This document shows positions 18,474-20,468 of a DNA stretch of 64,000 nucleotides, piece after piece (positions within the stretch are counted from its first letter, which is position 1; each line of letters starts with the position of its first letter). The position numbers and the translations under genes are program-made. This DNA is from Gammaproteobacteria bacterium (GTDB lineage: Bacteria > Pseudomonadota > Gammaproteobacteria > Eutrophobiales > Eutrophobiaceae): the NCBI GenBank assembly GCA_021773215.1, contig JAJFKM010000048.1, positions 12,923 through 76,922 on the forward strand, read 5' to 3'. The notes under the pieces were generated by a model. It ran no database searches. It had not been told where the DNA came from and saw only the letters and a list, made by a program, of their open reading frames with translations.

Positions 18474-20468
18474 TTATTGCTTAGCTAATTCTTTTTTAGT
18501 GAATATCCAAGCTATAAAGTAACAAACTGCAACAATCCAAAGCAAGTTTCTATAACCAAACATTAATGACAAGTATTCCATGCCCCCCCCTGCTACAGCA
18601 CCAAGTAAATTCCAACCAAAAGCCTGAGTACTAAACTGCGTATCGCGAAATTCTCTGCTAAATATCAAGTTTGCAAATAGGACCGGTGAAAAAACTAATG
18701 ATATAGCAAGAAAATATCTCAAGAATCCATTATCTATAGACAAAAAATAATTTTGAGGGATTAAATAAGCAATGGCAATACATAGAAAAAGACCTGCATA
18801 TAAAGGCCAACGTAGTTGTATTCTGAATTTTTGAATAATAAAGTTTGCAATTAATATAGACAACAATATGCCTGCAAATGCAAATGAATTAACTAGCCAT
18901 GTTGTCCCAAATAATAGTGCAAAAAAAGCCAGACTTTTAGTCTCTAGCAATAAAAAAGCGACACCCATGAAAAAAAATGCTGGCATAGGTTTTTTTAGCG
19001 TATTCTTCGGAGCTAAAAAATGAACTGCAGAAAGAGAAGTTATTAAAAACATACCGATCATTGCCAGATATAGCCAATGCACTGTCGGATACCGTAAATA
19101 CACAAACGGCCAGTCGTCTTCAGGTATCCCTTCATATTCTTCAATCTCAAACTGCCTAGTACTTGGTAACTTATCACCAACAGCAAGTAAAACAGTTTCA
19201 TTTGAAGTAAACAGTAATGGTGGCTTTCCAAACACCACCTCAATAGTTGCAGAGATTTTGTTAATCAGCCAAGTCCATCTATATTGATTGTACATTATAA
19301 AAATGCCGTTTGGCTTCAAGTGCTCATTAACTTCATGGAATGCTTCTTTAGTAAACAAATATGATTCCAGTCTTACACTAGAAAATGATGATAATCGCGT
19401 TAATGAATCAGGAAGCGCATAAACAATCAGATCATATTTTTTATCAGTACTTTGCAAGAAATTTCTACCGTCAGCGATATGTATTTTAACTCGCTCATCC
19501 TCGTATGGGCGATCTGGGTGAAATTGTTTTCCTAATGAAACTATTCCAGCATCAATATCAACGGCGTCGATGTTTTTTGCACCATGATAAAGTGCAGTCG
19601 TTACATCAGTTCCAGAACCTGCGCCGATGATTAATACATCATCAAGTGTATTATCATATTGATTAGAGAGTGTGTAAGGAACACTGTAGTACCAGTCCTT
19701 GGTTTTTTCAGCCGGATACATAAATTGGTGCATAATACTATTAGCAAAAATCACCGGATAACCCGTCTCATCTTGTTCAACAACTTCTAGTTTCTGATAA
19801 GTTGACCAAATCGTTTTATTTCCCTCAGCGGAGCTAAGCATCAAGACAACAACACATAAACAAGAAACACCTAATTTTAGGCATGTCTTATATGGATCAT
19901 TAGCTGTATTTAACATGAGTCCAACTGCAAGTAATACCGTTCCGGTCACAATCCAATAAGGTGGAGAAACTGAAAAGAGACTTTGAACGGTAAAAATACC
20001 AATGCCAATAAGACTTCCTAAAATGTCATATGTATAAGCTTTAATAGGCTTAAATAACGTAAAAGCATCAGCAATACAATTTCCTAAGCATGCAAAAAAT
20101 GTGGCTGTCGAAACAAAAAGAACCAATAATAATAATGCACCTGGAATACCCGCTCTTCCAGTAACGTTGCCAAAGAAAAACAAGCCAAAGTGATTAGTTA
20201 GAATATTGACATCGAACTCAGACACTAAAACTAATGCGATTATAAATAATAAAGAATATGGAATGAGCCCTTCTAAACGAAGACTTCTACTATAAGAGAG
20301 AAAGCCAACCCCTAAACCTACAAAAGAGGTGATCAGCATGAAGTTGCTAAAATAACCAAGGGAAATTACTTCTGCTGATGTGAAACGTATTATCGCCAAC
20401 TCAAAATATAATGTGGCTGCGGCTAATGCTATAAGGCGAATTATTCCAAAAAGTTCCTCGTTTTTCAT
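18474..20468 (-). CDS. Multi-TM membrane protein with central spermidine synthase-fold (class I SAM-dependent aminopropyl/methyl-transferase) domain
   Basis: 664 aa. N-terminal and C-terminal TM blocks flank VLIIGAGSGTDVTTALYHGAKNIDAVDIDAGIV...KYDLIVYALPD, a Rossmann SAM/dcSAM-binding motif like SpeE. There is a G8 tract near the 3' end. Confidence 0.6.
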   Translation of the reverse strand: MKNEELFGIIRLIALAAATLYFELAIIRFTSAEVISLGYFSNFMLITSFVGLGVGFLSYSRSLRLEGLIPYSLLFIIALVLVSEFDVNILTNHFGLFFFGNVTGRAGIPGALLLLVLFVSTATFFACLGNCIADAFTLFKPIKAYTYDILGSLIGIGIFTVQSLFSVSPPYWIVTGTVLLAVGLMLNTANDPYKTCLKLGVSCLCVVVLMLSSAEGNKTIWSTYQKLEVVEQDETGYPVIFANSIMHQFMYPAEKTKDWYYSVPYTLSNQYDNTLDDVLIIGAGSGTDVTTALYHGAKNIDAVDIDAGIVSLGKQFHPDRPYEDERVKIHIADGRNFLQSTDKKYDLIVYALPDSLTRLSSFSSVRLESYLFTKEAFHEVNEHLKPNGIFIMYNQYRWTWLINKISATIEVVFGKPPLLFTSNETVLLAVGDKLPSTRQFEIEEYEGIPEDDWPFVYLRYPTVHWLYLAMIGMFLITSLSAVHFLAPKNTLKKPMPAFFFMGVAFLLLETKSLAFFALLFGTTWLVNSFAFAGILLSILIANFIIQKFRIQLRWPLYAGLFLCIAIAYLIPQNYFLSIDNGFLRYFLAISLVFSPVLFANLIFSREFRDTQFSTQAFGWNLLGAVAGGGMEYLSLMFGYRNLLWIVAVCYFIAWIFTKKELAKQ

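Follow-up and report, generated by a model that had tools for sequence, protein, structure and literature searches.

What does a membrane protein with the fold of a spermidine synthase do between glycosyltransferase genes, next to a type IV pilin gene? The question is raised by a gene on the reverse strand of a 64,000-nucleotide stretch of contig JAJFKM010000048.1 from a gammaproteobacterium; the whole stretch is referred to here as the window. The gene, which we call SpeTM, lies at 18474..20468 and was singled out by an earlier reading of the letters alone (the sequence-only reading). Our answer is a tentative one. SpeTM may serve as an accessory or tailoring membrane component of extracytoplasmic glycosylation by polyprenyl-phosphate-sugars and GT-C (class C fold) glycosyltransferases, perhaps by an alkyl transfer of the S-adenosylmethionine (SAM) type, and not as a polyamine synthase.

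The SpeTM open reading frame begins with an ATG, with a Shine-Dalgarno sequence (AGGAAAG) 6 nucleotides 5' of it. The translation of 664 amino acids contains VLIIGAGSGTDVTT, DAVDIDAGIV and KYDLIVYALPD, the three sequences in which the sequence-only reading had recognised a SpeE-type motif, and residues 274-402 match the Pfam family Spermine_synth (PF01564) with an E-value of 7.6e-18 (65.1 bits, gathering cut-off 22.9). Public records (NCBI, Logan) hold an identical protein, and the identical contig is also public. An AlphaFold2 (AF2) model was built from a 68-sequence alignment of relatives and has a predicted local distance difference test score (pLDDT) of 90 and a predicted template modelling score (pTM) of 0.91.

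In the model SpeTM has 14 transmembrane (TM) helices and a complete SpeE fold is inserted between TM7 and TM8. Seven helices (residues 2-213) are followed by the soluble part (approximately 215-464) and by seven further helices (465-663). On the reverse strand the N-terminal membrane block (residues 1-214) is encoded at 19827..20468, the SpeE-fold soluble domain (residues 215-464) at 19077..19826 and the C-terminal membrane block (residues 465-664) at 18477..19076. E23, R28, N42, D148 and W172 are invariant in the N-terminal block. The C-terminal block has no Pfam match and contains the invariant E509, GTTW, N527, R584, N620 and E631 in the alignment of relatives. This second block had been anticipated, as had a first block and a soluble domain, the sizes of which needed correction: the predicted six or so N-terminal helices are seven in the model, and the domain has about 250 residues and not about 280, even with the N-terminal beta-domain of SpeE included.

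The soluble domain has the fold of SpeE. Four beta-strands (residues 218-249) correspond to the N-terminal domain of SpeE in the AF2 model and are followed by a Rossmann domain. Foldseek against the PDB ranks spermidine synthases first for this domain (E about 5e-9), and the top 50 matches are all spermidine synthases or polyamine aminopropyltransferases. This two-part fold is shared with the SpeE proteins of Escherichia coli (3o4f) and Bacillus subtilis (1iy9), as are the SxYQ motif, a glycine-rich motif I, the ribose-binding D306, the adenine-binding D333-G, D354 and LFT. SpeTM differs from these enzymes in an insertion of about nine residues in the gatekeeping loop, which includes the invariant R366, E368 and S369, and in the position of the domain between two seven-helix blocks, where it is predicted to be periplasmic.

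Residues of SpeTM were aligned to those of 3o4f and compared across the 68 aligned relatives (37-60% identity). In SpeE the Asp of the GGGDG loop binds the aminopropyl amine of decarboxylated SAM (dcSAM) and excludes SAM, and the first Asp of the D-x-x-D-P motif after strand beta-4 is the catalytic, proton-abstracting residue. In SpeTM the GGGDG loop is replaced by GAGSG (within a motif I that reads GAGSGTD), with S285 in place of the Asp, and D-x-x-D-P is replaced by A-L-P-D-S, with A351 in place of the first Asp. Position 285 is Ser in 41 relatives, Thr in 20, Ala in four, Gly in two and Asn in one, and is never Asp or Glu. The catalytic position is Ala in 68 of 68, and the second Asp of the motif (D354) is retained. 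The adenosyl-contacting residues of motifs I-III (G282, G284, G286, D306 and D333-G334, the last being part of a D333-G-R motif) are invariant. Further invariant residues are specific to the family: D288, R335, D354, S355, R366, E368, S369, Y393, N394 and R397, to which is added a DDWPFxY motif where TM8 begins at the membrane interface.

These patterns suggest that the pocket is conserved as if it binds an adenosyl ligand. Because the Asp of the GGGDG loop is lost, SAM is favoured over dcSAM as this ligand, following what is known of SpeE and putrescine N-methyltransferase, and judged from the replacements the acceptor chemistry is unlike that of SpeE. The sequence-only reading had made its idea depend on SAM- or dcSAM-binding residues; the adenosyl-binding residues are indeed kept and the dcSAM-selecting Asp is gone. 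It had also asked whether the domain is SpeE or a generic class I methyltransferase. The fold is that of SpeE, and at the level of family models both the SpeE equivalog cut-offs and the Pfam gathering scores of methyltransferases are missed. SpeTM scores 70.2 bits against TIGR00417 (cut-off 249.6), 68.9 against PRK00811 (260) and 45.3 against PRK03612 (472), and it lies below the gathering scores of Methyltransf_25 (21.9 against 27), Methyltransf_12 (21.7 against 30), Methyltransf_31 (19.8 against 27) and Methyltransf_11 (19.9 against 21.2). The class I methyltransferase signature is present and invariant, with GxGxG in motif I, the beta-2 acid D306 and D333 in motif III. SpeE-fold methyltransferases such as putrescine N-methyltransferase and METTL13 use SAM and not dcSAM after loss of the discriminating Asp, and the C-terminal domain of METTL13 (5wcj) is a weak sequence match to SpeTM (E=9e-4). 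Those proteins are soluble, cytoplasmic and have no membrane domain, whereas SpeTM is membrane-embedded.

On which side of the membrane the pocket lies was predicted by the positive-inside rule. Lys and Arg residues were counted per loop over the 68 sequences, with helix boundaries taken from the AF2 model. The mean counts sum to 15.8 for the termini and seven alternate loops and to 3.6 for the six other short loops. The rich segments are TM2-3 (2.5), TM4-5 (1.8), TM6-7 (1.5), TM8-9 (2.4), TM10-11 (3.3), TM12-13 (1.6) and the C-terminus (1.9); the poor ones include TM1-2 (0.1), TM5-6 (0.15), TM9-10 (0), TM11-12 (0.1) and TM13-14 (0.9). By the rule this alternation places both termini in the cytoplasm and therefore the domain between TM7 and TM8 outside. 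Cys residues are depleted in the soluble domain (0.19%, against 0.75% in the TM parts), which has none in 49 of the 68 relatives and exactly two in 14. The charge bias and the Cys depletion answer the topology question that had been posed with the sequence-only reading: the SpeE-like domain is predicted to be periplasmic, and the pattern is consistent in Gram-negative and Gram-positive members. To our knowledge, the SAM-dependent chemistry of bacteria is taken to be confined to the cytoplasm, and neither free SAM nor free dcSAM is expected outside it. A plain methyl- or aminopropyltransferase would therefore need an extra step, or else the domain would be non-catalytic.

A second group of membrane-bound SpeE-like proteins shows the same predicted placement. 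This group is described by the model NF037959 ('fused MFS/spermidine synthase', MFS being the major facilitator superfamily), together with PRK03612 and COG4262, and is uncharacterised. SpeTM reaches 23.3 bits against NF037959, over the SpeE region only (cut-off 40). A protein of the neighbouring type in locus L082 (12003-14975, 990 amino acids) reaches 76 bits. NF037959 proteins have 13 TM helices before the SpeE-like part, with the same charge alternation as in SpeTM, so that an odd number of helices comes ahead of the domain in both architectures (7 and 13). The soluble part has exactly two Cys in 49 of 55 members (P0124-P0243), and its SpeE-like part is likewise predicted to be periplasmic, in what would be a second membrane-bound family of this kind. 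The proteins are alike in being polytopic and in having a SpeE-like domain that has no GGGDG Asp and is predicted to be extracytoplasmic. They differ in architecture, since in the second group the domain comes after 13 (or 7) TM helices and before a helical domain with a Cys pair, and in SpeTM it is central. In NF037959 proteins GMGSG replaces GGGDG, and the active-site motif is EPSNPW in place of D-x-x-D-P, as compared with ALPDS in SpeTM. When plasmids were searched with tblastn for canonical SpeE of the PRK03612 type, only non-canonical NF037959-like genes were found, for example one in Cupriavidus with LEPPPP.

The membrane blocks themselves gave no match in Pfam or in sequence searches of the PDB. 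The N-terminal block was also modelled alone (pLDDT 88). Its Foldseek matches in the PDB are weak (E>=0.14, TM-score <=0.45; none at E<=0.001), and the top 50 are mostly transporters with the MFS fold, including GLUT5, VMAT2, SLC45A4, SPNS2, GlpT, NarK, XylE and FucP. On these models the membrane domain appears weakly MFS-like. Invariant polar or acidic residues lie within helices or at their periplasmic ends (E23, R28, D148, E509, N527, R584, N620 and E631). An internal repeat between the two TM blocks was considered and is not significant (hhalign E=0.054). Comparisons of the TM blocks with the MFS-type region of NF037959 proteins gave no significant match (hmmsearch E 0.16-1, hhalign probability <3%); the two are linked by motif-level resemblance alone (LYxELxxIR and AxxxNxxGAxxG), and we do not claim homology.

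The genes around SpeTM point to glycosylation. On the same strand the order is pilS, pilR, a family 2 glycosyltransferase (GT2) fused to GtrA, SpeTM, a TMEM260-like GT-C, pilA, a 636-residue tetratricopeptide repeat (TPR) protein, a second GT2 and a GT4. The GT2 with a GtrA/DPMS-type TM domain (20529..21629) matches PF00535 (E=2.6e-36) and PF04138 (E=9.3e-18) and is a predicted polyprenyl-phosphate-hexose synthase with a flippase-like domain. The TMEM260-like GT-C (16412..18409, 665 amino acids) matches PF11028 (E=2.5e-23), and its residues 19-446 match the structure of the human TMEM260 O-mannosyltransferase (9rql, E=2e-26). The major type IV pilin PilA (15647..16075) matches PF00114 and PF07963 and has many Ser, Thr and Pro residues in its alpha-beta loop. 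The sequence-only reading was right to place SpeTM between a GT2-GtrA fusion and a GT-C with pilA nearby. Between pilR and pilA the three genes stand only 60-67 nucleotides apart, with no convincing terminator. The GT2, the GtrA flippase domain and the GT-C are thus encoded together here, and SpeTM stands between them and matches none of the three parts.

This arrangement recurs in relatives of SpeTM, the loci of which are numbered from L001. In the gamma clade (52-60% identity) SpeTM lies beside one or two TMEM260-like genes upstream of pilA in seven distinct contigs (window/L001, L002, L082, L084, L090, L091 and L092). pilR is visible in five of these, L090 and L091 being too short to include the pilR side. 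The genomes vary widely in GC content, which is 38% in the window and about 61% in one other genome. The interval between pilR and pilA also varies: GT2-GtrA is present or absent, TMEM260 is in one or two copies, and an NF037959 protein is included in L082 and L091. The stretch between these two genes is accordingly a variable cassette, and what it encodes are membrane proteins that have periplasmic domains. In L092 (7216-9936) a 906-residue fusion of a Sulfatase domain (LtaS/EptA/PptA-type) and GDPD lies between SpeTM and the TMEM260-like gene and is a candidate phospho-form transferase for the pilin or the glycan. L085 (7444-9434) and L084 (10061-12046) encode identical SpeTM proteins, and in one of the two the TMEM260-like gene is split (520 + 131 amino acids). 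The split products have no Pfam match, and a frameshift, a pseudogene or an assembly error may account for the split.

Outside the pilin loci SpeTM has other GT-C partners. In L176 it is followed after 24 nucleotides by TMEM260 and then a GT2, with no pil genes, and in L174 it is followed after 15 nucleotides by a GT-C with PMT_2 and TPR domains. In L103 (8667-13146), from an uncultured organism, SpeTM has a GT87 gene on one side and a PIG-V-like (Mannosyl_trans2) GT-C gene on the other; stop and start codons overlap, and the three genes look like one operon. PMT_2 is found within three genes of SpeTM in L010, L052 and L059, weak PMT_2 or YfhO matches are found at the +1 position in L052, L162 and L134, and an AT3 acyltransferase is found at +1 in L025 and L048. 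NF037959-type genes adjoin SpeTM in two loci of the gamma clade (L082, L091) and in three of Chloroflexia (L038, L039, L058). Chloroflexia loci (L038 at 12070-16732, L039, L058 and L066) have SpeTM clustered with one or two NF037959-type paralogues and a GT4 or GT2.

Among 104 neighbours surveyed by Pfam in the distant clade (37-43% identity) no family was dominant, and the GT-C and AT3 signal (L010, L025, L048, L052, L059, L103, L134 and L162 above) appeared there only when polytopic neighbours were inspected singly. By our own tally a GT-C or AT3 gene lies within three genes of SpeTM in about 14 of 35 dereplicated loci. Of the 93 genes within 2.5 kb 22 are polytopic, as against 8 of 93 at 5-10 kb (Fisher p=0.009), and the share of large polytopic proteins falls from 24% (<2.5 kb) to 14% (2.5-5 kb) and 9% (5-10 kb). 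Since the partners span at least five Pfam GT-C families, functional coupling is favoured over inherited synteny. Most of these families use polyprenyl- or dolichyl-phosphate-mannose. The same SpeTM-TMEM260 pair is found with and without pil genes, and the functional unit therefore appears to be SpeTM with its GT-C, the pilin link belonging to one lineage. The co-occurrence with glycosyltransferases that the sequence-only reading had proposed to look for does extend to other genomes (TMEM260-like, PMT_2, GT87 and PIG-V-like partners, with AT3 in addition). Its suggestion that SpeTM modifies the glycan or the pilin is partly supported: the link to GT-C and GT2 enzymes is upheld, and widened, and a specific link to pilin is not, given L176 and the relatives that stand alone.

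We hypothesise the following route for the window. Synthesis and flipping of a polyprenyl-phosphate-hexose would fall to the GT2-GtrA protein, and the TMEM260-like GT-C would move the hexose to Ser or Thr of a periplasmic protein, most plausibly PilA, which with its Ser/Thr/Pro-rich alpha-beta loop is the obvious acceptor candidate. SpeTM would act at the periplasmic face of the membrane, on the lipid-linked sugar or on the transferred glycan. The likeliest chemistry would be transfer of a methyl, 3-amino-3-carboxypropyl or aminopropyl group from a SAM-type cofactor in the conserved pocket. If the pocket is periplasmic and SpeTM is an alkyltransferase, the cofactor would have to arrive by way of SpeTM's own membrane domain; we speculate that this cationic cofactor passes through the acid-lined, weakly MFS-like helices.

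Several known systems are useful for comparison. In the working model for AT3 and MBOAT proteins, activated acyl groups are relayed from the cytoplasm to periplasmic transferase domains. In the AT3-SGNH and MBOAT-SGNH acyltransferases (for example PatA/PatB) a polytopic part is paired with a periplasmic transferase part (PMC12148441). The parallel with SpeTM is conceptual only, as acyl-CoA stands against a SAM-type pocket, the folds and chemistry are unrelated and a relay by SpeTM would be our own deduction. Gtr-type three-component systems consist of a GtrB-like GT2, a GtrA flippase and a GT-C (PMC11127046). The genes that flank SpeTM supply all three of these canonical parts, and SpeTM would be an additional, fourth part, whose SpeE fold has no counterpart in canonical systems. 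For the flanking GT-C the comparison system is eukaryotic protein O-mannosylation by TMEM260 (PMC10214176).

A number of points weigh against the proposed alkyl transfer. Free SAM or dcSAM is not expected where the pocket is predicted to lie, and we know of no SAM relay across a membrane. The likeness of the membrane domain to MFS transporters is weak in the structural comparison, and the profile match to the MFS part of NF037959 is not significant. The topology of SpeTM is a predicted one. Catalysis is putative, as the proton-abstracting Asp of SpeE is missing. The module in the window already has a GtrA domain, so SpeTM is not needed as a flippase, and many relatives of SpeTM stand alone with no glycosylation neighbour. 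The boldest form of the proposal is distinctly doubtful: in it SpeTM, and by extension membrane-bound SpeE-like proteins as a whole, would be extracytoplasmic SAM-dependent alkyltransferases that import their own cofactor and add a methyl, 3-amino-3-carboxypropyl or aminopropyl group to lipid-linked sugars or to O-glycans, for example those of pilin.

The main rival is that SpeTM is a carrier or flippase. The 14-helix domain would move the polyprenyl-phosphate-sugar across the membrane or present it to the adjacent GT-C, or else would recycle the lipid carrier. In this reading the SpeE-fold domain would not be catalytic, and the ligand of this pseudoenzyme would be the head group, the acceptor, or a polyamine or nucleoside. 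Such a role fits the absence of the catalytic Asp from all relatives, a periplasm in which no cofactor is expected and the transporter-like Foldseek matches. The partner loci L174, L103 and L176 have no GtrA-like flippase, and three-component systems are known to draw their flippases from different families of transporters (PMC11127046). The GtrA domain in the window's own module argues the other way, and so does the conservation of the pocket, where the adenosyl positions of motifs I-III and R335, D354, R366, E368, Y393, N394 and R397 are invariant in a manner typical of an active site. We consider this explanation rather unlikely, if the most serious of the alternatives.

It is also possible, though improbable, that SpeTM has an envelope function apart from the glycosylation of pilin or other proteins, such as modification of membrane lipids or of a cell-wall polymer, and that its position in pil loci is lineage-specific synteny. 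For most of the distant clade, which comes from Actinomycetota and Chloroflexota, there is no conserved partner. Type IV pilin loci of the kind seen in the window are not known from Actinomycetota, and one relative (P0072) stands alone beside an integrase. Set against this are the GT-C and AT3 neighbours, which recur from at least five Pfam families in independent contexts, and the short or overlapping gaps to these partners, which suggest operons.

A cytoplasm-facing, membrane-anchored SAM-dependent methyltransferase, which would modify the polyprenyl-phosphate-sugar before it is flipped, is the version of the sequence-only reading's model in which cofactor supply is simplest, as SAM is available only in the cytoplasm, and it agrees with the invariant SAM-type motifs. 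ArnC, ArnD and ArnT follow a comparable logic, and the order GT2, SpeTM, GT-C resembles theirs. This arrangement would require an inverted charge bias in all seven Lys/Arg-rich loops across the 68 Gram-negative and Gram-positive sequences. The soluble domain is moreover depleted in Cys, with mainly none or two, and the odd number of helices before it (7, and 13 in NF037959) is what placement outside requires. We regard a cytoplasmic domain as quite improbable. That SpeTM is a genuine membrane-bound spermidine or polyamine synthase, as the 'spermidine synthase' names of its relatives and a PF01564 match above threshold would have it, is barely credible: it scores about 70 bits where equivalog cut-offs are about 250, and canonical polyamine synthesis was rejected, in agreement with the sequence-only reading, on the replacement of both aminopropyltransferase-defining Asp residues (dcSAM-selecting and catalytic) in 68 of 68 relatives.

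The wider locus contains further genes that may belong to glycan synthesis. The two-component system pilS-pilR (21697..24656, reverse strand; pilS 23037-24656, pilR 21697-23037), identified by Pfam matches, is directly upstream of the module. A sigma-54-type promoter was read from the sequence at 16131..16146 (TGGCATgaactCTGCT; TGGCAT-N5-CTGCT, with GG-N10-GC), on the reverse strand about 57 nucleotides 5' of the pilA start, and is consistent with control by PilR. For the three-gene module upstream of pilA there is no separate sigma-54-type element, and transcription may continue into it from pilSR. After pilA a strong intrinsic terminator (15585..15616, reverse strand) is formed by a 14-pair stem and a run of T.

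Directly 3' of pilA, also on the reverse strand, orf636 (13620..15530) encodes a protein with a polytopic N-terminus, an LDD motif and C-terminal TPRs. It has no Pfam or NCBIfam match, and a profile of five orthologues matches TPR proteins (E=3e-7). The gene is retained 3' of pilA in relatives and the LDD motif is conserved. We consider orf636 a candidate GT-C of the TfpW/TMTC style, at the place that TfpW takes in other pilin loci. The next gene (12740..13651, reverse strand) encodes a second GT2 that resembles polyprenyl-phosphate-sugar synthases (AglJ/DPM-like; PF00535, with TIGR04182 and NF041391 below their cut-offs), and with orf636 it forms a candidate second Gtr-like module, so that pilA would be flanked by two. 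A long glycan cluster follows on the same strand (736-12715, reverse strand). It encodes a GT4, an ArsR-type helix-turn-helix protein, a GT2, a B12-binding radical SAM protein, a GHMP kinase, the alpha and beta subunits of a thiamine pyrophosphate-dependent E1 dehydrogenase, a DegT aminotransferase, a nucleotidyltransferase, an epimerase, a NUDIX protein and an ABC-2 permease. This gene set suggests an unusual branched or amino sugar. In L170, L171 and L172 a fused MFS/spermidine synthase of about 985-1003 amino acids lies between sucD and nadE, beside a divergent pilSR-pilA locus. The gap between sucD and nadE in the window is about 100 nucleotides (26936-27035), and the fused gene is absent there.

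The SpeTM family is discrete and rare, yet it occurs in several phyla. Of 1.84 billion cluster representatives (clusters formed at 50% identity), 3,710 match a profile of the N-terminal block at E<=0.001 and 2,494 do so at E<=1e-10; full-length members have 650-760 amino acids. A search with SpeTM itself gave more than 2,500 homologues. Relatives occur in at least 594 stretches of a collection of species-representative genomes, and a metagenome scan likewise gave at least 594. Among the matches listed, Actinomycetota and Chloroflexota account for most, and Myxococcota, Planctomycetota and Proteobacteria for some. The family is therefore not a ubiquitous housekeeping one that lacks any link to glycosylation, an outcome that would have told against the sequence-only reading, as its members are rare and GT-C neighbours recur. 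Public sources label these proteins 'spermidine synthase'. Our search of the literature on membrane-bound or MFS-fused spermidine synthases, periplasmic SAM enzymes and bacterial TMEM260 found no study of the family, which bears out the earlier remark that membrane-anchored SpeE-fold proteins are essentially uncharacterised. Uncharacterised groups of membrane SpeE-like proteins were known before; new here is the SpeTM family, with a conserved SAM-type pocket that is predicted to lie outside the cytoplasm.

If the boldest form of our proposal is correct, SpeTM would provide the first relay of SAM across a membrane, akin to the way in which AT3 and MBOAT proteins pass on acyl groups. A conserved SAM-type pocket outside the cytoplasm would mean either that an unrecognised route delivers alkyl donors across the membrane or that the SpeE fold has a new, non-catalytic use in lipid-linked glycosylation. 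Either outcome would add a fourth component to Gtr-type glycosylation systems and correct thousands of 'spermidine synthase' annotations. It would also make SpeTM a candidate for the source of unexplained small modifications on pilin or cell-envelope glycans.

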